Shown piece after piece: positions 1-42,000 of a DNA stretch of 64,000 nucleotides (position 1 is its first letter; every line of letters begins with the position of its first letter). Under the pieces are notes generated by a model, which did not search any database, was not told the origin of the DNA, and saw only the letters and a program-made list of their open reading frames with translations. Source of the stretch: an uncultured Planctomycetales bacterium (GTDB lineage Bacteria > Omnitrophota > Gorgyraeia > Zapsychrales > JAHFFX01). Position numbers and translations under genes: made by a program. The stretch spans positions 508,896-572,895 of the forward strand of contig CAZTCI010000001.1 of the NCBI GenBank assembly GCA_964612665.1, read 5' to 3'.

Positions 1-3000
1 ATGCAGCACACTTCCTAAACTGTAGTAATTGGGAAGCGGTCGCGTTAAAACAGCGGTCAAGAGACCTTCGACCCAGGCGAGGCGAATGTCGACGTGCTCT
101 GTTAAAGAAGTGATTTGATAACCAGGCTGGCTTTTAATAAATTCCCACTGCTGCTTGATTTGACGCACAAATGAAACGACGCGGTCAAACACCGACTTGA
201 TTTCGCCAGCTATATTGTCGTGCTGTCTTTTAATTGTTTCGTTGATCTCTTTAATTAAGTCCATTAGGTTTTCATAACTGAACTCTTCTTTAATGGCCAA
301 TGAACTTTCTCTTTGAGTGGCAGCATCAGTTATCTCATCCCAATAAGACTGCACAGTTTCAGTAATAAGCTCCAGGGCGTTTCTCACATCATGCAAGCTG
401 AATAGCATTACTGCTTCAGTTTCTTTACCTTCTTCTTTATTCTCCGACGGAGGGATCTCCTCTCCAAAAAGACCGGCCACCAAATTACAGAGTCTTTCTC
501 GTCCAGCGATCTTCGGAATACGGATGACCTTACCTTTATAATCTTGGTTAGGTTCAACTTCAGTCCAGTATAAAGAATCTGTAATACCATACCCTCTAAA
601 ATCATAAGCCAGGATATCGTCGTCTTCACCACTTCGAATGATCATGGGATTAGGGAATCCGATTCTTTTCATTTCCACAATCAATTCAATGCCCGCATTA
701 TTCTTTCCCATCTGATTATCCGTCAACAATAAGTCAACGAGTTTTCCTTCTGCCAAAAGCTGATGATACGTTGATAAAGCCTTTTCCTTGTTGGCAGCCG
801 TATATACTTGATAACCTCTTTGTATTAAATCATTGGATATTGTCTCAAGCACGTCTTCGTCGTCGTCAACCAGCAAAATTAAGCGTTTATACGCCTGAAC
901 ATTGGGAGTTAAAATGGATAAAAGAACAATCATCATTAACCAATCTAACGACACAAAAATGCCTAATGTGGCTCTGGACTCCACTCGCGTTGAATTCTCC
1001 AACCCATTGAACCACCGTTCGACAATTAGCTCGAAATTCCGCAGTTTCGGATCGAATTGCGCTCTCATTTGGATCAGAAGCGATTGGATTTCCTCAATAT
1101 CTCTGAGCGAATTCATTCTAAAATCGGCTTCAAGAATTTTTCGTAAGGAATCAATTAGATATTGTTTCCCATCGGGGATAAAGGCCTTAAGTAATTCTAC
1201 GATTCTGGTCCTCGAGAATCCTCTATTCATCAAGCGCAAAACATGTTGGTTATTTAAAAAGGCCACAATATTAATTGCCGCAAGAATGTCGACATCTTCT
1301 AGGAGGAAAAGCATTTCGTTTAGTGAAATAAATTGCCCGGCTATTCTTAAATGCCAACTGAAAGAAGTCTTAAATTCTTCTTTTCTCGGCAGGCGATCCG
1401 CTTTATTTACAATCCGCATAAAACGCGCCAGCGAATTGATGCCCATTAGATAACCATCAAACGGTCCTTGTTTTAAGAGTTGCATTGCGAATATATCAGT
1501 CAAAAACTGCGGCGTAAGATCCTTTGTGTCCGTCGTCGAATAAAGTGGAGAGCTACGATTGAAAAGCTCTCGAAGGAACTCATAATAGGACAACACATTT
1601 TTCTGAATGTCCTGATAATCAGAAACTCCCGCATCAACAGCCAGCGCCACGGCCTGGCCAAGCAAAGCCAAGTACTGCGGCTGGCTGATTCCGACGGGTT
1701 CAGTGAGTCTCCATAAATCAGAAATTAGCGTGTCGACACTTACTGGAATATTATCTACCCCAATTATGTGCTTGAATCGATTGAAGCTGGCAGCGACCAG
1801 ATTCTCATCGTTCCTAGATTTATCCAACCAAACTTTCTGCCACTTTTCAACCGATGAGAAGAATTCCACCTGAACAGCCGCAGGTTGTCCAATATCAGCA
1901 TCTAAATTCTCCTCGAGAATACGACCGTTGCTCAACACCAAATAATTAACAGGAAGCATTCGGATATAATCCAAATACATCAAACGATCCTCATCCCTAA
2001 AATCTTCAATCGCCGGTTCGATGAGAATGATTTGGATCGGTACTTTGAGACCAAACACCGCCTGCATGAGGGCAATAGCAAACTTCTTAAAAATGCAGTC
2101 AAATGCGGTACTGCCGATCAAAAAGACAGTCAATTTCTTGGAGTCTCGCTCTTGATTTTCAATTAAAGATTTCAAAAACTGGGCGGTTGAATGTCGCGAA
2201 TTGCTTGCGTGCCAGCGCTGAATTATGCGGTCAGGGCCGACGGGAGGATTCTCCGATTCGATGGCCGAGGAGAGAATTTTGCAAGGTTGCTGTGCCACTG
2301 AAAGTTCTTTCACGTCAACCGTTTTTTGATTCCACAAAATGGAACGTAAAAGATTGCCTGCTATTTTTGCGGCACTTCCTTTTGGCGAAGCCGAATAATC
2401 ATTAACAACATCGATTCCAATGCCCCGTACCGCCGCGATAGCTCCTACTGATACGAACAAGCCTGTCACAGCGCTTAAAACTGTCGGCAAAATCTGCGCC
2501 AGCATCCATAGGAAGAAGGTTAGAATATCACCGTGGGGTAAAACGATCATTTCATAACTTTCTTCATCCGACGACATAAATAGTTCTTGACCTTCCAACT
2601 CTTCTTCTAACGATGACAGCCCTTGAAACTCCTGCGTCAGATGTTCCCAGCTAAGTGGTATCTGTCTTTCTTGTGCCTGTATCATGACCAACTTTGCTTT
2701 TTCTTCATCCACACCTAATTGTTGAGCCAGGGCTTTGGGATTATTAATTAGCTCGTACCATTGTTTTTCTGTTACTTGTTTTTGCAAACGCCAGTAGCGA
2801 AGTAATTCTTGGGAGTGACCAAATTTCGCTTCCAATAAGCGTTTAACCACGTTTCTAAAAACAGCTATTACCATGTTATAAGTTAACGCGCCTAGGGCCA
2901 TGAGATAAAATGAGAAATGGAAAGAATAAACTGCTTTTGCTTTTGCTTTTGCTTTATCTTTATCCATCTTGAACTCTGCATCGGTAAATGCCAGCAAATC

Positions 3001-6000
3001 TGTGAATATAGAAATTCTGACTTGCCATTGACTGGAAAGTTTATTCCACGCTGTTGGCTTGCCATCAAATGTAATGATTGATGGCAATTCGTAAGATTGG
3101 CCCTGGACTTCTGAAATCCAATATTGTCGTATCCGGGATTTACCGAGAAATGTTTCGTCACTTCCAACAACAACGAGTTCTTCGATCAGTAATATTTCGA
3201 TAAAAACTCCCTTATCTTTCGCATAATCCATAATAATAGCGGCGGCATTCAAGAGACAATCGCCATATTTCCCGCCGAGCAGAACAACCTGAATACCGTT
3301 TTCTTGGAGAAGGAGATCTAAGAATTTATAAATACGCTGACGGTCTTCTTTAGAAGATTCATGAATTTTTTCGGGCTTGGGTTCTTCTAATTCTTGAACT
3401 ACGATCCCACGCTTTTTTAATAAAGTAACCAAAGATTTAAAAATCGGCTGCATCTCTCTTCCCAAATCACCAGAAACGCTACGATAATCCCTAACTTCGA
3501 AAATTCCAATTGTGAGAGACCTGATTCGATTTATAGCTACAAAAGATTCTTGAGATGATGTGTATTGATTTCGGCGTTTTTGTCGTTGAATAATAATAAA
3601 CTTGCCAAATTCAAAGATAACTATGCCCAAAATAATACTAACCATTCCCACAGTAAATCCCAACATCCCGGCCGTTTCTTTGGTGGCCTTTAAATAAATA
3701 ACATCCGCCGATAAATCTTTATGACCACCCACATTGATAATCATCTGCTGTTCATACGCTAAAGAAAGCGCGGCCGCTTCGTTGATTTCAAATCCGGCGG
3801 ATTTGACCTGAGCGATCAGTTGGTCTTTAAGTTCGCCGAGCGGACCAAAGGATTCTTCAATCATTTCACCATTGAAGGAGACGAGATGTTTAGTTGCCTT
3901 AATAATATGTATTTCACCTCCATGGGAAAGGACGTTATAAACCTCAGATAAAACTATGGACGGCCTCGTCGATTCAAGCACGAAACTAAGCAAGGCCACA
4001 TCAAACGTCTCTGGCGCAAACGACAAATGCTGGGCGTCTCCATTCACCCAGAGACCATCGCTTACTGTGTGTTGCACGATGCGTATCTTTGAGAAATTAT
4101 TATCTAATCCAACAACGACATTCCCCTGTCTTCTTAACTTACCGGCGATGCCGCCGGAACCAGTACCTACATCCAAAATACGATGACCGCTCCCAATTTC
4201 CTGCAGATACCAAAACGAGAGCATAAAAGAATTATTAATAGTGTGCCGCAACAAATCCTCCAACGTTATGATGATGGGCTTACGCACGGCGGCAACAGAG
4301 ATCATTACTACAAGCAGCATCCATTTTATTAATCCGACGAACCAGATCATCGAAATCAAAGAATAAATATCTACATACAGCGAATTATATTGGCCTTGTT
4401 TATAATGTTCATTCGCACGCCTGATCAATTCTTCATGGATCCGATCACCAATCGGAATCATCCCTCGCCGGTGATTATCGGCCAAATATCCGAGCGCCTC
4501 TGCCAATGTTTGCGCGGCGATGCCGAAAAATAGGCGGACATCATTTGTGCCCATTATGCGGGCCGCGGGATTGGGCGCTGGGGGTTTTTCACGCGCGATA
4601 AACTGGCGGATTTCTTCCAGGACATTGAAGACTTCGGTGAGTTGTTTGAGTGTCTTGACCGATAAATGCGGTTGCGGTTCAACAAAGACAATTGAGTTGA
4701 CCAAGGCCAGCAGATGGTTTTGAATTTGATATGCATAATTATCCAGGTCTTTTATATTGGTCTGCTCGGCAACATGCATTTCATAATCTAAATCTTGATT
4801 AGGAAGATCAAGGATTTTGATCGACAACAGCCCTTTGTGTTGCATCTGTTCCAAAGCCGTGTACAAGGCGGCCATTGATTCCATGAAACCTTCACCCGAC
4901 GGAATATAAGTTTGATTCTTTAATTTCGGACCTTCGCTTCTCTTATCTTTCTTGGGCACAGACTCTTTCTGCGTGTAAGGTAAGAAAACGGCGCCTAATT
5001 TTTGGTTGTCTTTCTTGCCATAAAGGAAAAATTCAATCGCCAGCTGCGGAAAGACCCGGACCGTTTTGGGCAAAGCATCAATAGAAAATCTTTGTATTGT
5101 GACGTCCGCTTTCTTAATCGAGACATACTTGGGGTCCTTAAAGAAAATGACCGCTTCTCCATAATCCGTTGAAATCAGGAACTCAACCTTTTCGCCGGCT
5201 GCAAGATTTTGCTCAACCGCTTTCAAATTGATCGTCAATTCAGACTGGGAATTCTGTTCAAGTACTTCTTGTTGGGAGATCGGCTGTCGTCGAGGATGAT
5301 AAGAAGCAACGTCGAATGAACTTCCTTCCAGCAGCATAAGGATAGTTACGACCAAATAGATATTTTTGAAAAGTTGGAATGAAGATTTAAAGCGCGACGC
5401 GAAAACAGCAATTAAAACTAACACCGCGATAATTACCCAAAACTCTTGTGAATGAATAAGGGAAAAATTACTTCCCTCATCAACAGCATTCAAATCTCCA
5501 TTCTTGGCTCGAACTTCCCAAGTTTTATCAGCTTGTTGGTAAGAATTCTTTTGAATCGCCTCTCTAACTCTTTGAGTCAAATCATTTTCGTCGATGCCGC
5601 CAACGTCGATCCAATTCACGAAGGCAGCAATAATATGCTCCTGAAATTCCTCCGAACTTGCCGACATCCTCACTCCGATTTCCATAAATTCTTTGGCCGC
5701 CCTTTTGAGTTCTTCAATGGCTTGACTGCGTAATGACAAATCCTCGATGCTTCTCGCCAGCGTCCATCTCAGCTGATTGTTTAAATACCGTATGAACGTC
5801 TTTAATTTCTCCATATCTCCCTCGAGTAACTTAATTTTCCATAATTGATTGGCCAGCCGGCTGATCGTTTCAAATGCCTTTTGCCAGGTCTTTTCCGACG
5901 ATGAAAGCGAAAGACGCTCTGCCATTAAAAGCAAAGTCTCATCCAAATATTTCAACTCATTCGATGGATAAAAAAATAAATAGCTATCGTAATCATCCAT

Positions 6001-9000
6001 GCGTCCCATTGCGTGGCTATGATAAAGATCTCGCTCGGGAACAAGGGCGATATTCAAAACATAATCTCTGAACGGTGCTTTTTCATAACTGCAATTTTTT
6101 TCGTATCTAAGCCAACCATCGAGATTTTCCATCGCCATTGAAAAAGATCCACGAAGTCCCGGGTTCGCCCTCCAAGCAACGATTTTCAGTAAGAGCTCTT
6201 TCAGTTTGTGATTTTCAAGTAACCGGCCCGTCGCTTGTCCTTGCCAGTTTAGTTCTTCCACATTAAACAACATCTGCGCCAAATATTGCGGAATCGAATT
6301 TAGTCGCCCTTCGGTCCCCCAAAGATCCAGGGCATTTGTTGACTGAGGATCGTTCGAGATCGCAGGATCAAATGTTTTGAAGTCCAGCGCCTCTTTGAGC
6401 ATCCATAACGTTAGATCCTCATAAGTAAAATCGGAAAATCCGCCATTACGCAAAGACAACGGCTGCTGTAATTGTTCACTCATAACAAAATAAAGTCCGA
6501 TCAATCGTCGGAGGCCTTGAATCAGCGGCGGGAAGTCAATCGGATAAGTTCTTTCTTTATCAAAGTGCATTCCAATTGTTCGCACATGCAACAAAAAGAA
6601 TATCGATGTCCAGGCGGTTAACCATTGTTCTTTCAGTTGTCCACCTGCCCAAAACCACATTCGTCGGGTTCCTATTTCAAATGGTTCGACATCCTCAAGC
6701 GAAGCCAAGCGCACAATATCCTGATTGGGATGACCATACTTTGATAACCAGCCTCTGGCTTTCCAATACCGACGCAGACAATCGCCGATCAATGAAAGCT
6801 CTTGCTCCGAAAGTGGGAGCAAATGACCATCTCCTGTCTCACTATCCATTCTTTCAGAAGTAGCATTCACAATTAGATAACCTAAGAGCTTTGTGAAACG
6901 TTGACTCTCGTGAGTGAGAGAATCAAAAATGGTTGAAGCATTAGCATTATGCAGGCTATACAAAACATATCTTCTCTGCTTTTCGTTATAATGTTCCGTA
7001 TTCAAATCTATCTTAGAATCTAACGTAAATTCCCACGCAGGTGGAAGTAACATGCCTTGCGAATTGATATACCCTAGTTGAACAAGATCATTAAATAACT
7101 GTGGCAAGTCTTTGTCAGGAACAATCCCCTTAAAACTTTTCAAGCTTACCGCATCATATTGATCGAGGAGGTTTGTCAGTGTTTCGATCCATTGCGCAAC
7201 GGGCCGCGATGTATTCTGAGCATTGGAATCAGTTAAAGTAACTTTCTGCTGTCTGACTGAGAGACGACGCCAGAAACTCTCTCCCCATGACAACTTCAGC
7301 ATCATCAAAATCCCGAAGACAATCAGCGCAAGCCATCCCCAACTTCCTTCCGCACCCGTCGTTGGCCAGAGAATCAGATGGCTGCTCAATTCATTTCCCG
7401 ACGCTGATTGAGCACTCAACATCACGATCCCCATCGCAGCGGCAATCATTCCGCCGCGCAGGCGTCCCCAAAATCCTCGTACTAAGCGAATTGCTAACGT
7501 AACAACGAGACCCGCAGTAATGACGGTCAATAATCGATTGAGAATAGATTGCAAAAGGTTTGAAAAAATAGGGTTGTGCTGCAGGAAGGAAAGAAGCGGA
7601 GTATCTTTTTTGCCGACGGGCGGGGCGTTGGGCTGCATCTTAGCATAGTGCCACACAATCAAAATACTAACGCCAATTAAAATCAATAGATATTGCACGA
7701 GTGAGTAGGTGTCCATGTTGAAAATGTTATTTGTTTTAGTCTCCCGATCAAAACCTCCATCCCGTTCGGCGAGCATCAGAAAAGCCGTCTCGGCGATGTG
7801 CATGTCGCTGATGCCGTGATGCAGATAGATTTTATGCACGCTGCGCGTCGAAAGACCGTTTCTGACGAGGCCCAGGTCCCAAACGCCCTGTCCTAACCGC
7901 AACCGATCACCGATTCCAGCGAGAAACTCCGGCGATGCATCCGCGACGGTAACAACCGGGGTGAACTTCCGTTCAGTCTTTGGAATTAATTTTTCTAATT
8001 GTTCGAATAGATTTTCTCTTCCTAACCGTCCAAGAAGAAGATTGGGGCTCGTCACCACAATCACATTGGCGTAAATGGGATAATTTTTATGAAGTTTCAA
8101 AAGCTCGTCGGACGCGGACAAGGCGGCCTGGACCATAGGACCGATGGCGACGATGTTAACCACATTGTCATCGGGATGGTAATCAGGAAGATGGCTGTAA
8201 TCGACGAGCCGGTAACCGCCTTTGAGAATTTCTGGGCCGAGACGCTTGATGGCGGCGGGTTCATTAAGGCCGGAATAAGTTTTCTGTTCCCGCAACCGCC
8301 GGAACAATCCGCTGCGTTCAACCAACAGGCTCGATGCGCGGATATACACGGCGTTACGCCCGTGGTCATGGCCGGTCAACATAAGTTCAAAGGTTTTTTT
8401 CAATATATAATCTAACTCGTCAAGAAAAGCCGGTTCCCACATAACCGTGTTGGGCATCGCCCGGCCGATGTCCGCCGAGACACTCGATTGATGTTGAGCA
8501 CCGTCGGTGGCCAGCGTTGGGCCGGACGGTGTTCCGACAGCAATAAATTGTGAACCCCAGTACTGGGCGTAAAAAAATTGATCCAGCGCCCGGCGGAATA
8601 AAAACATATCATAGATCGTAACAACCGGAATCAAACGCACGCCAAACAAATCATAAGCCTTGCCAAAAGCCGCCGCCAAGGTCACGGCGTTCATTTCTGT
8701 AATGCCAATGCGTAAATGATTTCCCGCAAATGAATCGGCGCTGACAACACCTTGAGTGGCGCCAGGAGCAATCATTCCCGTAGATGATCCAACATCCGGA
8801 GAAATCGTGACCAACCGCGGCGCTATTTTCTGCCAGAAGCGATCGTCTTCGGAAAGGTCCGCCGCCGCCGATTGACTGAGTAGACCTTTCACCCTATTAA
8901 TCGACATACCCAGATATGTCTGCGTTGGAATTCTCCCGCGGGCCGGTGAATAAAGTTTTTCCGGCCAGATTTGATTCTTTAATTCTGCTTCAAACGCCGC

Positions 9001-12000
9001 GCGGTTTGCATCGATCATTTGCTGCGCTTCGGCGGCTTCATGATCTAAACGTGAACGGACATTCTTAAGTGTCTTAAACTCGACGGAAGTTTCATTGAAA
9101 TTGGGGAATGGATTATCTTGCGGCATGCCTAATTCGTTACGGACCTGCGCCAATTCTTCGGGAGTCAATAACTGCGAATGGTTTCCTTCCTGACCAATCA
9201 TCGGTCTTAGACCCCAGCCTTTGATCGTATGCGCAATAATTACCGTCGGGCGATCGCTGGCGCGGGCTTCGCTCAAGGCTTTGATTAACTCAACCAAATC
9301 ATGGCCGCCCAAATCGGTAAAGAGCTCATAGATTTTTTCATCGCTGTATTTCTTCAAGAACCGCTTTATTGGCCTTTTCCTTTCCAAAGAGAGTTTCTTA
9401 TTCTTATCATCCAAGGGAAAAGGCCTAATATTGACTTTTGTTTCTTCCTTTGGATTCACAAAAGTCAATAAAGAAGAACGTTGTTCGATCATCCAAGCGC
9501 GGATTCCGGCGCCGTTTTGAGCGGAAAGATTTTGGTAAACTTTCTGGTCGATTGTTTCCATAACTTTCCTAAAGACACTTCCCCCTCGTCGGGCAAAAGC
9601 CGCTTGCAATTTTCGGCCCCAGCGCAGTTCAACGACTTGCCATCCAGCCGCCGCGTACATTCCGCGCAGTTGATCCAATTTCCAGTTTTCGGTATTTCCG
9701 TCGAGTGATTGGCGGTTGTAATCGACAATATGCGTCACGCGGTCCAAGTTAAATTCTTTCACTAACGTCAGAATCTCCCGCAGGTTTCCTTCTTCAGATT
9801 CAGCATCACCCAAGACCGCGAAGAAATGCGAATCAGAAACCGCATGGCCATGCGCCTTGAGCCATTTCCAAACAACGTTAAGTGCTAAGGCAACCGCCGG
9901 CCCTATGCCAACCGAGCCCGTCGGAATTTTGACGCCGTCCGGGTCCGCCATTCCCGGATACGCGTGCAGGCCTGGTTTGTCTAATTCATCCGTGTTGACT
10001 TCCGGATGCTTGGCGATGAAGGCGGCTTTTAATTCTTCAAGTTCTTTTAAGACTTCTGGCGCAAGACGGCCCCTGATATCTTCAGCCCTGAAATCAACCG
10101 GCAGCCGGACAGCGTTATCACGCAAACGATAAAGTGTATCGACGGGTAATCGACCTAAAAGATATTGAATGGCATGATACACCGGCGCGGCGTGCGGTTT
10201 GTGGGCGACAAAATCATGACCGCGCATGACAGCCAGCTCGAGGGCGATCATAATGTGCAATGCAGACGCGGATGCAGCCTGGTGCCCGCCGGTTTTAGGC
10301 AGTTCATATTTAATTTTATTGGCTTCATCAATTTCACCGATTGAAATCCCAAGCGCCCGACGGGCGATGCTTTCTAAAGCTTCGATGTCCTTCGGTGCAA
10401 ATCCTTCCGGAATTTTATCATTTCTATTTCGGGGAGGCCGGTGTCCGGATGAGCTCATTGCAACAATCATCATCGTGGACAAGAACAACGCAGCCACATG
10501 TCCACCTACGAAGTAGGACACAGCCAATAGTCCATCCAGTGCCAGCGCGATGAGGACAAGCGCAGTTGCAAATACGGTGGAGAGGTTTTGATCTGAGCAT
10601 TCTTTTATTCCATTTTTTGTTTTTTTGGTTTCCTGAGCTGAAAACTTTTTCCACCAGGCAAACGTTTCACTCAAACCCGTCCCAATATTCTTTTGTCGTC
10701 TCAACTTGTTGACAATCAAAATGATTAATGTTATGTTGGCGTCGAAAAGATCATTGATCAATAATTGCGTGGCCCTCTTTGAAAGATGGGAGAATCGTAA
10801 GTGAAGATCTGGGAATTTGAATGGGACAACTGGAATATTGAGCATATTGCTAAACATTCCGTAAAATCTCAAGAGGTAGAAGAAGCTTGTTATCGCCGCC
10901 ACGTCGCTAAGAAAACTAAAGATGACATTTATCTTGTCTATGGTCAAACGTATTCTGGCCGTTATCTTTTCATCGTTATTAAATATAAATCTAAAGGAAT
11001 TGTTTACCCTATAACCGCTCGAGACATGACTGATTCTGAGCAGAGATTCTTCCTTAAACGGAGGTAACATATGATTAAGAAGTCTTCTGTAATCCCAAAA
11101 TTTAAGAATGTCGCCGATGCGGCTGAATTCTTCGATCAACATGATACGACCCAGTTTCTCGACGAATTGCAACCAGCGCATCTTAAGTTCCCTAAGCCCA
11201 AGCATCTTTTGATCACCTTGAAACCTAAACAAATAACGAGGCTCAGACGCTTGGCCGACAAAATGGGTAAACCTTCCGATCAAATTGTTGAGCAATGGAT
11301 CACCCAAAAACTTGCCGAAGGGTAATGATCTGCCCAATGTGGCACGGCTCAATTTCTTTACAATCTCTTTAAAAACGCCTTTCGCTTTATCTGAGGATTT
11401 GGTTCGAATCGTCAGTATCAACAGCAACACATCAACGGCCAACACAAGGAACATCAAATGTAATCCCGGTCCCGGAACAAAATATCCTTTAAACACAACC
11501 ACCGGACGTTCCTCATCAGGCAGAAAACCTAATTCCTCGCGGATCTCCTCGGGAGATATTCTTAAAATATGTATGGGCTGAGGATGATCTTCAAAATATT
11601 TTAAGAACAGGCTTGTAATCGTTTGTCCGTTATCAGAAGCAATATGAAGACGGCCCAGAATAAAAAACGTGTCTTTAGCAGCTTTTCGGCCGCGCGATAA
11701 GATATTGATCATATTGGGGAACATGAATGGTTCCCTTAGGTCAATAGCGAATCTAAAGTTCTCCGAGACATTGATCCCTTTCAAAATTTCTTGAACAGCG
11801 GGCTCGGCCTGGCCGACGACATGATTTTCGCGTTTGGCTCTGGCCATGAGGGCTTTTATAAAAACAACAGTCAAATCACGCCAAGTTGTCAAGTCTTTAA
11901 GCATGTCCGCTGAGTTATCCGGGGGCAATGTTACGATCGCGGAAAAAACGAGACTGTTCCGGGTGTTGTAATAAAGAGAAATGCGTCTGTATAACGTTGT

Positions 12001-33000: not shown

Positions 33001-36000
33001 ATACACAATTCCCTCAGCATAGAGATAATATTGGATTTGTGCATGGCTGTTATTAAAAATGCGGATATCATCAACCGAAAGATAATGCGGCCCATCAGGA
33101 TGATTGTGCAGGTCCAAATAAACGAGGGGATAATCTGGATTTAGTTCCGGACCGACGGAATCCTTATCGCCTTTGACGATACTGTAAAGGTCCCCTTCCA
33201 AGGATTGATGGGAAACTTCAAAAGGTAAATATCCAGAGGCGACGGTGTAAAAACGATCAATCGCGCGCCAGAACTCCGGCGTCCCGACGGCCGCGGCAAA
33301 TGGTCGAGCGCTGTAGCGTGTTCCTTCCTTCGCACTAATAATATCCTGCTTTATCTGATCGAGCGTCATGACTGGCCGACGCTGGATCCGGGAGATAAAC
33401 TTCCGACGGATGAATTCCTGGGCTTCCAGTTCATGGACGGCCATACCGATTATCGCGACCGCCGTCAGGCCGAGCAGGCTAAGCCAATCGGTATAGGCGG
33501 AAAGTTTTTCCACCTTCCCAACCCCGGAGGTTGGGGAGGATAATAATTTTTGGCTAAGATCTGCAGCCACATCCAAGTTTTCCAACACTTTCGTCGCATC
33601 TTTAGAACTTTTAATAAAGACAACCGCCTGAGAAACCGCCGCCGATATTGTTTCTATTTCGCCGATCATCGGAAAACTTCTCTTCCAAATAGCAAACTGG
33701 TGATTCCACGCAGCCAAACGCAGTTTGATGGCCAGATACCTCTTATCGGCCCATAACTCCTTCACTTGATCTCGGGCATGGACCATCGACGGGATTCGGT
33801 CCAAGGACAGGAGCAATCTTTCCTGATTTTCCCGTCGTTGTGCTTCCTGAAGTTCCCGTAATTCTTTTCTAATTTGCTGTAGTTCTTTTAAACTATGGAA
33901 CAATTGCTCAGTGGACGGGCCTTTAAGGACCGTCCGCGACATAGCTGCTGCCATTGCCCCCATCCCAGCAGAGAGCAATATCTTTCCGACGGGGATTCCA
34001 AACCATAACGCGGTCCCCCCATCTACACCTACGAGGTAAAGATGGATCCCCACTCCATACAACGCCAGTGCAATCATGACGGATGGAAATATGGCGAAAA
34101 GTTTTTCCACCTTCCCAACCCCGGGGGTTGGGGAGGATCTGAGGATCACCGCCAGCATTTCAATTAGTCCAACCAATCCCTTAAACACAATCCAAATCCA
34201 CACGGCTTCGATCGTGACGGCGGAGACGTTCTCGATGGGATTGTGATCGAATTCTTCTAGCGCATCGATTTTTCCGTATAAATATTGGGCCAAATGGCGG
34301 ATATCTTTTCGATAGTCGTGCGTCTTAACCAAATCCCAGAGGTTCAATTGTTCCCATTGATCGCCGGCAGCTTCGAGAGCTGCTTGGATTATCTTTAACC
34401 ATTCCTTCGCATAGAATTCTCGATGACGGAAATTGGACGCCACAATCCAGTGCAGTAATTCTTCTTCGGAAGATGTCTTCAACATCTCAATCGCGGCCCG
34501 GCGTTTGGCTGGCGAAGTGACCACCAAATCATTCATCCGCAAATGCTCGTTGAGAATGTGCTTCAGGCGCCGAGTCCTGGCAGAATTCGCCAAGCTGGTT
34601 TTATTTGTGAAGTCATCAAGAGAATTGAACGGATTGTTTAGCTTGCGAACCATCACCACAAATTCGGTCTGCGTCATTGTAAATCCACTCAAAAGAAAAT
34701 CCACCTCATCAGCGTAATTAAGGAAATATAGAATTTGTTTTTTGGTGTTTTTCGGGTGCTTCTGCAATTCTCGACGATGTTGCTCCGCATTTTCTTTCTT
34801 CTCTTTTCGTCTTTCGTTCTCTTTCTCTAAATCCGCCCGTGCCCTTTCACGAGGATTCTGAAATAGAATCTCTCGACGGTTTTCGGACGTTCGTTCCCAC
34901 GACATCGCAAAGACAAAGATATATGCCAGCAACATCCACGGACTGAACAGATAAGTACGAACTCCGGAATGATGGACGATTTGTTTCTGTGGAGTTTCTT
35001 CTTTAGTTGACAAGCCAACTTTCAGGGCTTGGGCGCGGCTGGCGGAGAGGTAAATCAACCGTTGAACAAACATGCCCGCGATCATCAGCACCGTAAAGAC
35101 ACTCATTCCCGTCGATAAATCGATCGTCACGGCGCGGTGTTTTTCGATATCAGAAGAACGACTTGGTGTTTTATCTTGTGCATTCAACCTGCGGGGTTGA
35201 ATGGACATCCTGTTCCCCTTCACACCTCCGAGGCGCGAAAGAGCATTATTTCTTAGCTTTTTACGAATACTTATAATTTTTAACACTGAACGAATATGCC
35301 ATTCTCTTAGCCCCAACCGCTCTTCCCGGATTTCTAATCTATCCCCAGGATATTTTTCAAAATCTGCAGTCACAATTTCGATAAGCCGTTCCCTTTTTTC
35401 TAGCTTTTCTCTTAAACGCACTCCCGCGGCTTTCTGCTTTAAGAACGTTAAATCATAATCCGGCCATATTTTGCTAATAATGTAATTCGACACTTGTTCA
35501 ATGTATTGATGCGATGATCCCATCTGTTCGACAATGATGCTTGATGATTGATCCAAAGCTATTTTGCGGACTAACACTTCTTTTTGCGGGAGCGTTAGTC
35601 CATACCTATCTCCTATATCGTTAAGGGTCCTTACAAGTCCTTCTTTAGTGATGGCATAGCCACTACTCTCCATAATGTCGCGAGCAAAACTTACTCTATT
35701 ACCATGCTCCATCGCTGTCTCCTGAGACGATAGAGAAGATCGGTATTCCTGGATCCCTTTTTGGCGATCTCGGTTTCGCGCATATGTATTTCGTTCGCCT
35801 CGAATTTTTAAATTAATTCCATTAACGACATATGTCAATAAGCCTACGCCATTGCGCCGATCAAATTTGATCACACTGCTGCGAATAGTTTTAATGAAGT
35901 CATCTGTTCTTTCCTTTAGGAAGGATCTATTCCATCTCTGTTTAACTAAGGGCATTTCTGTCAGACCGGCGATGAGGACTTCCATCGCCAAACCATCTTT

Positions 36001-39000
36001 CTTATCTTGAATAAGGTCAATTAAACGGCTCTGTTGCTCACGGCTTAAATATCCTCTGGAATGACGTGGCATGCCCAAGATCGTATTGACAGCGGCTTCA
36101 TCTCTTTGCTGAGGAGCCCAAATAATTTTAAGTTTAGACTCTTTAATAACCGGCACAGGAGGATTCAGCCCGTACCATTTCTTCATTTCATAAAGAATTT
36201 CTACTGAGCTTTTTCCTTTTAGATCGTGATTTTTTGCCCAGTTCAGCAGAAGCCCCTCTAAACATTTTCCTCCAAACCCTGGAATACCTGTATGAATAAT
36301 ATCGCCCACTTTTAAATCTACTATCTTCCCTGCACGGCGATGATTGGCTAGATGTTGAAGGATCGCCCATTGCAACCGCTCTTCAAGTTTGTCCCAGGAG
36401 AATTTCCTCGCCCGTCGGAATTGATCCAATACCGTTTCCAATTCTTCAAGGGTTACTGGTTTTTCTTCTGCCATCGTCATAAGAACAGCAGATGCGCAGA
36501 GGACTGCTATCCACGCTTCCGCACCTACGAGGTGCTGATGGGTAACCATGGCGACGAAAGCGGCGGAAATGATGATAAAGCGGAAGACTCCGTCGAGGAA
36601 ATCATTCAGTCGGCTGGGTTGAACAAATACAATTCGACGCAAAATGGAATTCACATTGTCTTGGCCGACATACGCAAGCGCCGCCGCAATTCCTACCAGA
36701 ACAAAAATCCATAAGGATGGACCAACGGCCATCAGTTTTATCTCTCGATCCCAAAACTGACTTGGCCCACACCGGCGGACAACAAATTTCTTTTCCAAAT
36801 CCTCTTTGACCGTCGTCACATCTTCTTGGACGATCGCGTCCGCCACACGTAAAGAAAATCCCATTTGCAGGGCCTGACGGCCGGGCATGGATGGGCTATA
36901 TCTCAAGCGAAGCCCCTGAATCAACGCGCGATAGGGCGCTTCCTGTCCCCGGAGAAACTTAAGGAAGGCAAACTGTTTGATTTCTTTGGTGGATACGGAG
37001 GTTTCAATATTATTTCTAAGATACGCTAAAAATTCTTTGTAATAACTGACCCAGTGCTCAAGGATTCTTTCCAGCCCCAACTCATTTAATTGTTTGTTCA
37101 AACGATTTGTGTTCCCAAAGACCAAATCTGTCGGTTTAAATTTATCAAATGTATCGGAGGTAATAGGACTCAATAAACAGCGCTCATTTAACGTTGATAC
37201 ACTGAGCTCATGCTTTTCGCCCCCGATTCTGACCCACCGCCCCAATCCCCGTCGGGCCAGGGCAATGAGATATTCGGGTTCGATATCAAATTGATCTTTC
37301 CCTTGATAATAAACGTGAATGTCCAGGTCCTTGATCATGGACCACAATGGGATTTGATTTTCGCTAAAAAGATAGGTCGAGGAGCCGGTGACCGTGATGA
37401 TCGGAGCCTCCACAATGGATAACGTAGCGACTTGCTTTAGAAGTTCGATTAAATCGACCGGCGGTAAAGCTGGATTGTCTGGCTGAACAATAAACTGGCG
37501 CTCAGGACGATAGTAGGAAATGTGTTCATCTTGGTCCACGATCAAAACAGGCCAATGCACTGTTTGGACCGCCGCCAGTAATATCAGCGCGTAGACCGCC
37601 TCGTTCAAACCGATCAGATCTCCGTGGGCCAAAAGACCGGATAAAGCCGCGAGGATGGCGATAGGGCGGAAGAGTTGTGCGATCAACCTGCGGGAGTGAA
37701 CAGACTTGATAAAGCGGAAAATTCCGTCGAGGAATAACATCACCCTCTCCGACGGCGGCGAAGTCTTGAGAAATTCGTAAAACGCGCGGAGGTTTTCAAG
37801 GATGACGCGGGATTTGGAGATTAGAACAGCGGCCATCAAAACAATAATGAGAATTTCCGCGAGGTGAAACACATTATTCGACGAAAAATTTGATTTTCTC
37901 GTCGGTCTTATCCGTGCAGTCGAAAGGAAATCGATTCGATGGGCGTTCAACGTCGCGGCATCTAATAATTCAAACCCTGGGAATGTTTGATCGACGATAT
38001 GTTTAATCAAATCCGCCAACTGATCCGCAGGGATTTTGATTAGATATCCTGGAATTCGGTGCATCTGCTGAGGACTAATTTCCCTCATCTCTTCTGCAGT
38101 CAAAAATTGAACCGCGGCCATCGATACAACCCGGCCTTCTAATCTGTTGACAGTCCATTTTCGCGACATTATACTTTGAATCGAAAAGGAGATAGATTGA
38201 TGACTTCTCTTCAAGATGCTATGAAAATCATTAAACCGCTTCAAAACCGTTTCAAGAAAAGCCATAAGTCCAGAAGAAAAACGAAGATTGCCGACGATCT
38301 TTTGGGTGCGTTCAAAGGTGCGACCGAAGGTAAATCTTCCAGTCAATGTGTTCGAGAATTGAGAAATTCTTCTTATGGTAAGTTTAAATAACCCTTCCTT
38401 GCTCTTGGACTCCGATGTCCTTGTCAGCTGGTTGACGCTCGAAGAAGATATTCTTACCCATAAAAAGCTCTGGGAAGCTCCCCACAAAATAATGACAATG
38501 GTTGAGGAAAATTCTTCTCTCGGTTGTTCAACGATTATCAATCTTATGGAAATCAGGTTTGTGTTGCGTGCTAAGAAGAAATTCAGTGAGCATAAGATTA
38601 CATCTTCTCTTAATAAACTCTCCGAGATTCTGAAGCTATTCATTCCAGATGAAATCAACCTATTAAAGGCGAATGAACTCCAGTCCAAATATCTTTCATT
38701 ATCGCCAACCGACGCTATCCTTCTGTCTGTGGCCACAACCCTAGACAATGTTGTCCTAATCACCCGCGATCGAGAATTATTGAAAGCTGCCTCAAAAATT
38801 GTCTCCGCATCAACTCCTGAAGAATTTCTGGCGAAACGCTGATCTCTTCTGTTCCAATAAAAATTCCCCACCAGCATTGCAATTAGCCCAACCACTCCCT
38901 TAAACACAATCCAAATAAAGCGGAAAATTCCGTCGAGGAATAACATCATCATCTTCGACGGCGGTGAGGTTTTAAGAAGTTCGTAGAACGCGCGGAGGTT

Positions 39001-42000
39001 TTCGAGGATGACGCGGGATTTGGATAGCAGAACAGCGGCAACCAAAATAATGATTAGAATTTCCGCGAAGTTAAAGGAGTTATTCGTTGGAGAATTCGAT
39101 TTACCCGTCGATCTCGTGGCGAGAGCTCTGCTGTCCTGAGATCTTCTTTCTGTGGTGACGAAAGTTCCTACCCTTCTTAAAATTTTGATAACTCTATCCC
39201 TTCCCTGAAGGTTATTAGAACTCTGTCGAGATTGGGGTTGTTCAACGATCGGCAAAGTGACGAAAAAGCTGGCGCCCTGGCCCAACTCGCTCTCCACATC
39301 AATCTCTCCATTGTGCGCCGTAATAATGCTTTTCACAATGTAAAGTCCCTGGCCGGTCCCGTCTTTTCCTTTCGTCGTGAAATATGGCTCGAAGATTTTA
39401 GAGACCAGCTCGGGCGCGATCCCGGGGCCATTGTCTTTCACCTCGAATTGCACGAGGGGCGCATTGTCGATTGGCGTGACGATCAACTCAATCTTTCCGT
39501 CTGGTATCTGCGCTAAGGTATACACCGCATTCTTTAGGAGATTGATAAACGCATGCGTCATCTGAATTTGTTCGACATCGATTCTAATCCCGGCGGCAGC
39601 GGAAAAATCAATCTGAAGTTGCTGTGGATCGAAGAGAGCGAAGATCTCTTCAAAATGTCCTCTAAGATTAGTCAAGAATTCCTCGACGGAAATGACTTTC
39701 TTCTTACCTTTCCCGGAATAACTGAGATAAAAATCAATGATTATTTTAAGCCGGTGGGTAACGCTGTGGAGGGTTTTGAGGACTTCACGCTTGGCTTTAG
39801 GCTCAACGATACCTTGATCGATATTTTTGTCTTGCGGATGCTGGCGGAAATCTTTGACGAGCTGCTTCCAGGCGCGATGAAACTTTTTCAGTTCAGGTAA
39901 ATCATCGAGAAGGATTTGCAACGCCAACATAATTAACCTTTCGCGCTGTTCTTGTGTAAACGGTTGGGCATAATTTTCAAGCACCTGTTGTAATGCCGGA
40001 TTGAATAACCCACCTATTGGCCTTTTCTCTCTTAAAGATAAGGTTGTTCTGTCATGCTCGGGGAGAAAAGGCCTAATACTAGACTTTTGCAATGCAAAAG
40101 TCAGTAATAACTCCGCTCGCTGTTCTCCTGTAAGCAGCTCAGCATATTTTTCAAGCATCGCCCGTTTTAATTCTGGGTTTGATAATGACTGAATATCGAC
40201 ATAAGGTTGATCAGATGCGGCATGGTTGCGAAGAATCTTCAAATCATTAATTTTCTCGAGAAGATTTAAATCCATAATATTCTCACTCAAAGATTGCATA
40301 GCGGATTTGAATGGTTCCGGCAAAATATCGGCATTACCGTTTGCCGGATCAAAGAATAAAGTAATCACGGTCAAATCATTGCCGATTTCATGCAGGAAGA
40401 CCGGCCCCAAATCAGCGATGATCCCCTGCCAATAATCTTCTTTTGGTATCCGCATTACCATAACGACAACCATCGATAGTCCCAGCAGCCAATTGAACGG
40501 CATAATGTATACGGCGTTTCTCTCGGTTGGGAGCTTCATAAATACATATTCCCTTCTGGCCACTGTCTGAATTTCAAGACCAAGCGGCTTTCGGTTTAAC
40601 GTTTTGAGCATTTGGGTGATAAAGTTTATCCGCCGCAAAACTGATGTGATCGGCATGCTGCTGCCATCACCCAACGTCGTCCCTGGTTTTTCTTCCAGCA
40701 GCATCTCCATGGTCTGCCCAATAACTGTCAAGGCCCCGGACAGATTTATGACGACGGGCCCGTCTGTAATAGAATTTCTAAACGCCGTCCCCATCACATT
40801 GCTTTTCCGCACTAAAGCGATCAAATCCTTGGCCTTTGGTGTCGTATCATTGCCAAACACAGGGTCGGATTCTGCCTCCTGCTTGACGTTTAGCATTGCT
40901 TCCAAAATCAATCTTGCGGACTCGCGTGCCCGTGTCGGATCTCCTAACGCTTCGCGTTGGCCATTAACAAATTTAACGAACTTAACCAGCTCCGTGCGCA
41001 GAGCCTTAATCCATTGCGGCCATTCTAGGTAATAAAATAATTGTTCCAGGACTGCCATAATAAGGAGCGTGCGTTCTCCGACGGGTTGGATTGGATTTCT
41101 AGATATTTGTTCTTCTTTCTGTTCAATGTCTAGAATCAAATGCCAGACTGGCTCTACAAATGCTTTCCTCTCAAGCAAGCCCCTTGTATATTTGAAGAAA
41201 TCATTCTGAGATTCATGATGACGCAATACTCGACGGGCAGCCAAACGGGCCATGGGATATTTCATGGAGCCGATTAAATCAGTCAACGTAAGATAATTTT
41301 TTACAAAGCTGCGCAATCCTGGCTCTTCAATCAATCCTTTAAACTCAATCAGCTCGGAAATAAAACGGAAATAGAAAACAAACCGTTCTCCGCCGGCCTT
41401 ATAAAGGATCCGTTTCCTTCCCGTGGCGGAAATAGGCCTATCATTTAAAACTTCGATCAGCCAAGCAGCGATCAAAAGTCTTAATGCCTCCATGTCCTCA
41501 TCCTCAACCGGCCCACTTAAAATCCACGCGCGTTTTTCGTCGGTGGAAAGGGCCAGGAGATTATCGAGACCAGTATACTGGCCGCGCACCGCCATCAAAA
41601 ATACCGGAGCGCTCAGCAACATCAAAGACATTCCCATCCATAAAACGGTTTTGATGGCGAGTATAACCAACATCAATCCGCCCACGGCGCCGACCAAGGC
41701 GATGGAATGCAATTTCTCCTCGAGCTGCGCGATTTTATTTTCTATTCCATTTGTCTTTTCAGATTCTTGGTCTTTCTTCCCGTTTCCATTCAATTCAGTG
41801 GAATACGCTGTCAGAGTGAATAATTCTTTTAAGTCCTCTTCCCATTGCTTATGAAAAGGAAGGCTCTCTGCATATTCCTGGAAGAGACCTGCGCGCAGCT
41901 GACGCCACACCATATGGTCGAGCAAGACCTGACCATTGATGACAAATGCCTGCGCAAAGTGTCTTAATTCCTCGACGTAGGCCGGATATTTCTGTGAGAT

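Follow-up and report, generated by a model that had tools for sequence, protein, structure and literature searches.

A giant stop-free gene fragment of an Omnitrophota bacterium combines helix-turn-helix units with kinase-like, receiver and cofactor-dependent modules

Giant proteins exceeding 10,000 amino acids (aa) form a recently recognised and functionally unexplained class in bacteria. A stretch of 64,000 nucleotides from contig CAZTCI010000001.1 of an uncultured bacterium assigned to the Omnitrophota (GCA_964612665.1; positions 508,896 to 572,895), hereafter the window, raises the question of what kind of protein would carry the parts of a regulatory system dispersed along a single chain. 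A first-pass annotation, made from the letters alone, had placed a histidine kinase ATPase, a receiver, a sigma-70-like module and more than 20 helix-turn-helix (HTH) units on one polypeptide, and had suggested that the HTHs might bind nucleic acid at the membrane, possibly that of a host or prey, serve as protein-interaction modules, or be released by proteolysis. Our analysis suggests that the window protein probably belongs to the already described giant mosaic membrane proteins of the Omnitrophota type, as a highly divergent member, and that its new content lies in the density of XRE and LuxR/sigma-4 HTH units and in a non-canonical kinase module.

The claim of one polypeptide is borne out by the reading frame. 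The minus-strand frame with codons ending at position 63999 contains no stop among 21,333 codons, while between 849 and 1344 stops interrupt each of the other five frames. This frame occupies positions 1..63999 (-) and is open at both window ends, so that the gene extends past both edges, exceeds 64 kb in size and is represented here by an internal piece; residue i begins at window position 64002-3i. No long gene could be observed on the plus strand of the window. The G+C contents at the three codon positions (GC1/2/3 = 0.52/0.35/0.47) are of the coding type, with mild GC3 heterogeneity along the frame, and approximately 25 independent domain matches, obtained by Pfam scans of 5,000-aa chunks, 760-aa overlapping tiles and short targeted pieces, all fall within it, with selected pieces compared against NCBIfam as well. 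A frame kept free of stops over 64 kb implies that its translation in full is under selection. The recognised modules are separated by long unannotated, mainly helical stretches, and internal repetition is slight, with self-comparison of the protein yielding 16 paralogous segment pairs. The youngest of these are a 197-aa module (aa 6151-6347 and 6484-6681; 76% identity) and a 67-aa segment (78% identity). Older paralogous segments show ratios of nonsynonymous to synonymous substitution (dN/dS) of 0.28-0.29 and are under purifying selection.

All six loci at which XRE-type HTHs had been predicted harbor at least one supported unit. Nine units were identified in all, with three at 17.13-17.79 kb, one each at 26.06-26.24, 28.80-28.96, 44.09-44.27 and 45.09-45.28 kb, and two at 59.45-59.87 kb. 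Whole-piece HTH_3 or HTH_31 scores exceed the Pfam gathering cutoff at each of the six loci, and a hidden Markov model (HMM) built from the window converged on nine XRE units, with no matches in shuffled and reversed controls. The triple array (aa 15404-15458, 15459-15513 and 15570-15623; 17131..17790 (-)) matches HTH_31 (Bitscore: 75; three stretches), HTH_3 (Bitscore: 55.9) and the in-window HMM, while one of its units also passes the RodZ-type HTH_25 model (Bitscore: 29.1; cutoff: 24.6). These three units are tandem paralogs with 36% identity, carry net charges of +9, +2 and +7, and begin 37 aa past a cluster of three hydrophobic segments (aa 15323-15367). Single units are located at aa 12586-12648 (26056..26244 (-); HTH_3, Bitscore: 29.5; e-value: 8e-7, as a short piece) and aa 11680-11735 (28795..28962 (-); HTH_3, Bitscore: 30.7-46.6), both of which are also recognised by the in-window HMM, as are the two units at aa 1376-1432 and 1461-1516 (59452..59874 (-); HTH_3, Bitscore: 33.8 over two stretches; HTH_31, Bitscore: 29; HTH_26, Bitscore: 21.2).

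The remaining two XRE units form part of the young duplicated module. Copy 1 (197 aa, aa 6151-6347; 44959..45549 (-)) contains an HTH at aa 6242-6302, which matches HTH_3 (Bitscore: 32.7) and an NCBIfam MqsA-family HTH model (Bitscore: 57.6; two stretches). Copy 2 (198 aa, aa 6484-6681; 43957..44550 (-)), with its HTH at aa 6576-6636 (HTH_3, Bitscore: 32.6; HTH_19, Bitscore: 30), is located directly upstream of a SecA-like module. The two copies have the same helix 2 (LSQTQFAEIL) and conserved C-terminal helices, while their recognition helices differ at four of nine positions (SRWSVSEYE versus SQSSVKNYE). The dN/dS ratio amounts to 0.61 over the entire module and to 0.79, with a wide error, over the 61-codon HTH unit. 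Such high values would fit a diversification of binding specificity and equally a relaxation of constraint.

Both loci proposed to contain LuxR-type HTHs, at 12.9-13.6 and 32.0-32.4 kb, are likewise supported, by GerE and Sigma70_r4_2 matches. At the former, three LuxR/GerE units (aa 16803-16854, 16900-16951 and 16977-17028; 12916..13593 (-)) begin 9 aa past the hydrophobic segment 16778-16794 and score 51.5 bits against GerE over three stretches, with single-unit scores of 27.7, 24.2 and 22.7 bits (PF00196; cutoff: 23.5). At the latter (31966..32436 (-)), a sigma-70 region-4-type HTH (aa 10633-10678; 31.97-32.10 kb) matches Sigma70_r4_2 (Bitscore: 33.6-35.1; cutoff: 25.7) and, below its cutoff, TIGR02937 (Bitscore: 21), while a weaker LuxR-like unit (aa 10522-10572) reaches 14.8-16.3 bits against GerE. 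The pair lies between the hydrophobic pair 10442-10483 and the segment 10696-10719. The in-window LuxR-type HMM, which recognises the units at both loci, gave no control matches. The region-4 fold is common to LuxR-type HTHs, and the Sigma70_r4_2 unit is located away from the position at which a sigma-70-like module had been proposed.

Supported HTH units are thus present at all eight of the HTH loci named in the first-pass annotation, while its total of more than 20 units is reduced to 14, namely nine XRE-type and five LuxR/sigma-region-4-type, with approximately three further sub-threshold matches (HTH_23 twice and PhyR_sigma-like once). Iteration of the in-window HMMs yielded no further HTH units in the window beyond these nine and five. 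The units retain the XRE or LuxR core pattern and have an average net charge of +4.4 per 100 aa, versus -0.14 for the whole protein. Judged by their sequences, they are genuine XRE and LuxR folds and not degenerate helical linkers.

The histidine kinase ATPase predicted at 39.2-39.8 kb was confirmed as a DHp-like helical hairpin followed by a CA (ATP-binding) domain (aa 8016-8255; 39235..39954 (-)). The CA domain matches HATPase_c (aa 8144-8251; window 39247-39570; Bitscore: 80.7; e-value: 1.4e-22), with intact N (NLLKNA), G1 (DNGPGI), F (FEPYFTTK) and G2 (GTGQGL) boxes, and the module furthermore matches NCBIfam kinases of the AtoS/ZraS/PhoR type. In an AlphaFold model based on a 55-sequence alignment, the CA domain has a predicted local distance difference test (pLDDT) score of 85-98, and the preceding two-helix hairpin (aa 8016-8053 and 8067-8097; model positions 167-204 and 218-248) one of 55-73. 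The best Foldseek matches of this model are the DHp-CA regions of HK853, WalK and ZraS (TM-score: 0.75). No HisKA match was found in the kinase region by Pfam. In the column of the phospho-acceptor, which is His in 90% of 54 homologs, the window protein carries Leu8031, with the AHEIGNPL motif of the homologs aligning with LLDDLPEL. An H-box-like motif, FLHEIGNDLTVI (FLHEIGNDL; aa 7868-7879; 40363..40398 (-)), can be read directly 19 aa past the hydrophobic segment 7828-7849 and approximately 160 aa upstream of the canonical His position. This region shows a secondary local match to the HEIGNPL H-box of the PAS-kinase P0189 and is weakly modelled (pLDDT: 33-38). A tandem repeat of approximately 60 aa (NPELKRAMLEKYAELLTGEQRAELLLTFALQ / NPALQQVLENYAQPFTQEQRERLIMLALQ; aa 7941-8031; window 39900-40180 (-)) separates the H-box-like motif from the DHp-like hairpin, and may be an insertion which split an ancestral DHp. 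With its ATP-binding boxes intact, the kinase fold is probably an ATP module and not a canonical autokinase, and the Leu at the canonical acceptor position makes a classical hybrid relay unlikely.

The receiver (REC) reported at 0.56-0.89 kb was likewise recovered (aa 21041-21141; 577..879 (-)), directly after the hydrophobic segment 21010-21037. It matches Response_reg (Bitscore: 38.9-39.1; cutoff: 30.2) over positions 1-95 of the 111-position Pfam model, as well as NCBIfam response regulators. Alignment with the REC domain of Bacillus subtilis PhoP (1mvo), retrieved by a PDB search, shows that the acidic pair (in VDDDED) and the Asp that accepts the phosphate (in LLLTD) are kept. A Ser is present in MIIRSG, and the alignment stops short of the region of the conserved Lys. 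No match was obtained by BLASTP of REC against Escherichia coli CheY. REC is located 12,790 aa downstream of the kinase module, in agreement with the approximately 12,800 aa noted previously, and more than 30 hydrophobic segments lie between the two. Because of this distance and the many intervening segments, the kinase and REC look more like separate, independent modules than like a hybrid kinase or cognate pair, and REC could be phosphorylated by another kinase.

By contrast with the kinase and receiver, the sigma-70-like module claimed at 35.5-36.1 kb received no statistical support. The region (aa 9290-9520; 35440..36132 (-)) is helical and its resemblance to a sigma factor is at the level of motifs alone, with region-2.2-like and region-4-like motifs discernible by eye (VIKFDRRNGVGLLTYVVNGI; LTLPQKEVLVRKIALDQSSSIIVEQMGSSHQYIEQV). 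It yielded no Pfam match even at an e-value of 5 or below, no match to NCBIfam sigma models, including TIGR02937, no PDB match by phmmer and no match to the in-window LuxR/sigma-4 HMMs, while its single-sequence AlphaFold model (pLDDT: 42) is unusable. Nor was a match to Sigma70_r2 (PF04542) found anywhere in the window. A genuine sigma region 2 is present in P0034 (locus L008 1-14665), a 6,657-aa protein with multiple transmembrane segments encoded on a 309-kb JGI metagenome contig (Ga0082335_1000071), and the best local match of aa 9290-9520 to it falls on the region-2.2-like motif (e-value: 0.085).

The regulatory units share the chain with several enzymatic modules. A divergent SecA-like motor ATPase (aa 6760-7330; 42010..43722 (-)) matches SecA_DEAD (Bitscore: 26; cutoff: 24.6) and P-loop_SecA (Bitscore: 19.7), with intact Walker A (SAGKT), Walker B (DEAD) and arginine finger (GGRG) motifs; NCBIfam secA models match at approximately 52 bits, and only partially, at model positions ~297-491. 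Its best match among 1.84 billion representative proteins, searched exhaustively with HMMER, has an e-value of 1e-11 and 24% identity, all matches there being distant and of the SecA type, one weak match is a 5,059-aa Omnitrophota fragment, and a word-indexed search of a 5.8-billion protein set with this region gave nothing at an e-value of 1e-5 or below. A full-length thiamine pyrophosphate (TPP) enzyme resembling the pyruvate dehydrogenase E1 component AceE (aa 17871-18750; 7750..10389 (-)) matches Transketolase_N (Bitscore: 85.5), Transket_pyr (Bitscore: 39.5) and PDH_E1_M (Bitscore: 29.8), retains the TPP motif (GDA..EEGN..NRQSLDG) and is 97-100% covered by ordinary E1 proteins. Furthermore, a class-I S-adenosylmethionine (SAM) methyltransferase (aa 19930-20080; 3760..4212 (-); Methyltransf_11, Bitscore: 54.8; motif I: LDVGTGSG) follows the hydrophobic segment 19878-19905, and a DAO-like FAD/NAD(P)-binding Rossmann module (aa 14504-14850; 19450..20490 (-); DAO, Bitscore: 38.6; NAD_binding_8, Bitscore: 36.2) contains GGGIFG and a downstream acidic residue, with the DAO match covering only the N-terminal 65 of 353 model positions. 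TPR repeats are found at aa 4464-4623 (50131..50610 (-); TPR_2, Bitscore: 28.1; TPR_16, Bitscore: 27.5). The nucleotide and cofactor motifs that were checked along the chain are all intact.

Membrane tethering, as envisaged in the first-pass annotation, is supported by approximately 55-66 hydrophobic, transmembrane (TM)-like segments, about one per 330-390 aa and many of them paired, as counted by Kyte-Doolittle, uncharged-run and Hessa-scale scans, which are crude predictors. A recurring layout can be observed, in which a single or paired hydrophobic anchor is followed by a soluble domain within ~10-70 residues, as is the case for REC, the H-box-like motif, the methyltransferase, the GerE array, the triple XRE array and the sigma-4 pair. 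Around isolated hydrophobic segments, the net charge comes to approximately +38 over the 15 following residues, versus -7 over the 15 preceding ones (Wilcoxon p: 0.01-0.08, depending on threshold), and in 22/31 cases a K or R is the first charged residue to follow. Several segments fall into small sequence families, namely 'WIWIVFKG.VGLI' (aa 8357-8383, 9932-9953, 11172-11198 and 11589-11608), 'HGFDD.GVWMMILNLAI' (aa 13699-13718 and 14071-14091) and 'KVEKLSA.FPSV' (aa 9967-9992, 10442-10461 and 10696-10719), suggesting that anchors were duplicated along with their modules.

Two studies provide the context in which this architecture can be placed. West-Roberts et al. (bioRxiv 10.1101/2023.11.21.568195) described full-length giant genes coding for up to 85,804 aa, all with numerous transmembrane regions, most of which encode a divergent SecA DEAD domain without scaffold and wing and among whose top-20 domains HATPase_c is found. 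TMHMM places most of the detected domains outside the cell in these episymbiotic or predatory organisms, although the authors call some of the localisations 'highly unlikely' and the TM predictions unreliable. Nielsen and Lui (10.64898/2026.06.07.730766) catalogued 916 proteins of 10 kaa or more from Omnitrophota, in which Methyltransf_11 (137 proteins), HATPase_c (136) and Response_reg (105) are among the most recurrent domains, with TM densities of up to one helix per 370 residues and 80% of sequence clusters being singletons, and considered that this regulatory and metabolic content would be compatible with TM anchoring and exposure on the cytoplasmic face. The published sets were delimited at 10,000 aa or more, or at more than 30,000 aa/more than 90 kb, and the window frame, with at least 21,333 codons, lies above the 10-kaa limit. 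The first-pass annotation had called membrane-tethered DNA-binding domains in such numbers odd. The view of the window protein as an oddity in itself is weakened by the known recurrence of kinase, receiver, methyltransferase and SecA-like domains in Omnitrophota giants; the HTH richness is undiscussed there, with XRE/LuxR/sigma-4 HTH units such as the 14 of the window going unmentioned in the text of both studies.

Placement of the window protein in this class is indirect and rests on its architecture and on one homology link, the E1 module. The best database match of the latter (42% identity; e-value: ~1e-142), compared to ~33% identity with ordinary E1, is a 1,202-aa open reading frame (ORF) that takes up the whole of a 3.6-kb contig from a 'Candidatus Omnitrophota' metagenome-assembled genome (MAG). 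The closest E1 modules from GTDB representative genomes share 46-49% identity and form part of ORFs, from 1,459 to at least 4,969 aa in length, in MAGs of Omnitrophota (L002, L004 and L005) or labelled 'uncultured Planctomycetales' (L003 and L006). These ORFs are themselves enzyme mosaics, with Peptidase_M3, GAPDH, PRK, CYTH, HD and methyltransferase domains, and those of L002, L003, L005 and L006 have signal-peptide-like N-termini. No XRE or LuxR units were detected in the long ORFs of L003 and L005 or in the first 3,400 aa of P0034, where the only HTH traces are one weak HTH_24 and one weak HTH_8 match. Searches with window peptides against GTDB representative genomes and JGI metagenomes returned no relative, and megablast of 25 kb of the window against phage genomes returned no match.

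Taken as a whole, the reading that we favour, with modest confidence, is that of a mosaic protein of giant size, anchored in the membrane and at least 21,333 aa long, which would fall under the 'Archaeovorin-type' or the 'multi-enzyme / signal-transduction module' kind. Because the modules require ATP, TPP, SAM, FAD/NAD or cytoplasmic partners, we infer that they would be exposed on the cytoplasmic face and kept at the membrane by the hydrophobic segments, and an all-cytoplasmic topology, as deduced from this biochemistry, is the most likely. The kinase module would then function as an ATP-binding or pseudo-kinase module rather than as a His-Asp donor, unless the upstream H-box-like His7870 serves as acceptor, and the kinase-like and receiver modules may act as local switches and not as a self-contained relay. 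The HTH units, which are net-positive and, between the duplicates, most divergent in the recognition helix, could provide membrane-proximal docking for nucleic acid, as in ToxR and CadC, or for proteins, as in RodZ.

Several observations weigh against this reading. In a crude TM-parity test, no hydrophobicity threshold places all the cofactor-dependent modules on one side of the membrane, and the one-directional charge polarity around the hydrophobic segments is unexpected for alternating spans and keeps a polyprotein alternative alive. The high dN/dS of the duplicated HTH modules is a further such point. Pfam scans furthermore detected no glycosyltransferase, glycoside hydrolase, peptidase, NUDIX or HEAT domains in the window, so that of the Archaeovorin domain set only the methyltransferase and TPRs are present. 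Finally, BLASTP comparison with P0001, P0014, P0034, P0271 and the long ORFs of L002, L003, L005 and L006 aligned the SecA-like or E1 module only, with no homology beyond single modules.

Among the alternatives, the one that survives best, although we regard it as unlikely, is that of a polyprotein, translated once and then cut, with its modules acting separately, either anchored or released in the manner of membrane-tethered sigma/anti-sigma or SREBP-type systems. The modular succession of a hydrophobic segment and a complete domain, exemplified by REC after 21010-21037, the methyltransferase after 19878-19905, the GerE array after 16778-16794, the H-box after 7828-7849 and the XRE array after 15323-15367, would be expected of such a product, as would modules that resemble complete stand-alone proteins, such as the E1 enzyme. 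The flank polarity of +38 versus -7, which is hard to square with strictly alternating spans, and the failure of the TM-parity test point in the same direction. However, Pfam scans revealed no protease domain in the window, and no recurrent short cleavage-like motif is apparent, with GG dipeptides, for instance, observed 60 times against an expected 56.5. For a related giant, the published peptide data are too thin to distinguish between the possibilities (bioRxiv 10.1101/2023.11.21.568195).

It is decidedly unlikely that the chain represents accreted domain debris, that is, an ORF which grows by capture and duplication and in which the HTHs, kinase and receiver are passengers with little or no function. 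Such an origin would account for the dN/dS of 0.61-0.79 between the young HTH-bearing duplicates, the absence of the canonical His from the kinase, the partial nature of the DAO (65/353) and REC (95/111, without the conserved Lys) matches, the extreme divergence from all database proteins and the occurrence of the E1 relatives in ORFs with wholly different domain sets, and 'integrative-element passenger genes' are listed among the surviving hypotheses for Omnitrophota giants (10.64898/2026.06.07.730766). Debris would, however, not be expected to retain the Walker A and B motifs and arginine finger of the SecA-like module, the TPP motif, SAM motif I, GxGxxG, the kinase boxes and the Asp pocket of REC. 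Nor does it sit well with the dN/dS of 0.28-0.29 in the older paralogs, the clustering of the changes between the duplicates in the recognition helix rather than in the HTH scaffold, and the selection for translation of the entire frame that the lack of stops over 64 kb implies.

A more elaborate proposal, which we consider quite improbable, is that the chain contains a complete membrane-tethered regulatory circuit, with HTH arrays, sigma-4 or sigma-like parts, the kinase-like module and the receiver all in place beside the SecA-like motor. The HTH and sigma modules might then anchor the chromosome to the membrane of an ultrasmall cell and organise it there, or might be freed by regulated proteolysis, for example on host contact, and reprogram transcription. 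Were this so, the recurrence in P0034, an unrelated giant, of a module pair and a sigma part on either side of the SecA-like domain would mark a conserved regulatory core of these proteins.

Of the three functional ideas offered in the first-pass annotation, the extracellular binding of host or prey DNA by outward-facing HTH arrays at the cell surface is the least likely, and we regard it as very improbable. XRE and LuxR HTHs, families of Pfam clan CL0123, are sequence-specific dimeric operators and not general DNA scavengers, and the same chain contains ATP-, TPP-, SAM- and FAD/NAD-dependent modules and a phospho-receiver, for which cytoplasmic cofactors are needed. The HTH units are net-positive, and both the TMHMM placement of most giant domains outside the cell and the episymbiotic or predatory lifestyle would accommodate it, but the authors of these localisations call some of them 'highly unlikely' (bioRxiv 10.1101/2023.11.21.568195) and the later study regards the regulatory content as compatible with TM anchoring on the cytoplasmic face (10.64898/2026.06.07.730766). 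That the gene is an assembly chimera or is not translated as one protein is scarcely credible, since, although no relative in GTDB representative genomes or JGI metagenomes is available for a cross-check, a frame free of stops against ~850-1,340 in the others, coding-type GC1/2/3 and ~25 independent domain matches in one frame argue against an artefact.

Further features of the window were noted. The longest listed ORF outside the giant frame, an antisense ORF of 307 aa (20245-21168 (+)), has no Pfam match and overlaps the GC3-richest part of the giant ORF (aa 14101-14400; GC3: 0.61), where the GC3 richness leads to fewer antisense stops, and it is probably spurious. Hidden separate genes within the frame were rejected, as Shine-Dalgarno plus ATG sites are not enriched in frame (9/523) relative to out of frame (25/643), and a recent horizontal acquisition of modules was rejected on the grounds that the GC3 of the modules falls inside the mild heterogeneity of the ORF. 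No tRNAs or Rfam families were identified in the window. The sole nucleotide tandem repeat in the 64 kb (23278-23319; 21 nt x 2; 90% match) is in frame, with seven codons per copy, and trivial. Cysteine is very scarce across the frame, at 0.16% of residues and 0-3 per 1,000.

A single giant protein can therefore hold a dense set of transcription-factor-type units, nine XRE and five LuxR/sigma-4, and these share the chain with a kinase-like module, a receiver and intact cofactor-dependent enzymes. The joint presence of regulatory and cofactor-dependent modules in one chain argues that large parts of such giants face the cytoplasm, and raises the choice between membrane-bound regulatory or metabolic scaffolds, polyproteins and domain graveyards. 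It also serves as a warning for annotation, in that two-component and HTH matches in such ORFs are not to be taken as ordinary regulators.

The closest known systems are the Omnitrophota giants, with which the window protein shares a stop-free ORF of tens of kb, a similar density of hydrophobic segments, nearly non-repetitive unique sequence, a divergent SecA_DEAD-like domain without the SecA scaffold or wing, and HATPase_c, Response_reg, Methyltransf_11 and TPR domains scattered among long unannotated stretches. It differs from them in its 14 HTH units and, in comparison with Archaeovorin, in lacking glycosyltransferase, glycoside hydrolase, peptidase, NUDIX and HEAT domains within the window, which covers an internal fragment only. 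P0034 contains a SecA-like module of the same divergent subtype (24% identity), with shared GSRGY, GKT.AL, DEAD, GRPV and RG.NI blocks, and has many hydrophobic segments, methyltransferase-like parts and a repeated module pair directly upstream of the SecA-like domain, as well as a clear Sigma70_r2 (Bitscore: 48) downstream of it, near the C-terminus, suggesting that transcription-factor parts recur in this protein class. Homology between the two is, however, confined to the SecA-like module, the upstream repeats of P0034 are weakly HTH_8-like (Bitscore: 15.6), and its sigma region 2 is clear whereas the matching claim in the window is unsupported. P0034 also contains a P-loop module and a recurring 'GRKKHPIFLKSL + hydrophobic' motif.

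Hybrid histidine kinases (HisKA-HATPase_c-REC) likewise combine a DHp-CA fold and a REC with an Asp pocket in one chain, but their REC follows ~100-200 aa after the CA domain, whereas that of the window is 12,790 aa away and the canonical His is replaced by Leu. In this last respect the kinase resembles the DivL-type pseudo-histidine kinases, in which the DHp-CA fold is combined with a non-His acceptor residue, and DivL (PDB 4q20) is among its structural matches. DivL has a Tyr at the acceptor site and a degenerate ATP site, whereas the ATP boxes of the window kinase are intact and an H-box-like motif is found 160 aa upstream. For the HTH units, the nearest parallels are RodZ, ToxR and CadC, in which an HTH domain adjoins a membrane anchor, with no homology found beyond the HTH fold. 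ToxR and CadC are membrane-tethered factors which are still able to bind DNA. The cytoplasmic, membrane-anchored XRE-type HTH of RodZ, by contrast, binds the protein MreB and not DNA (PMC3599482). These are small bitopic proteins with one HTH each, whereas the window protein carries 14 such units, in arrays, on a chain of more than 21,000 aa.

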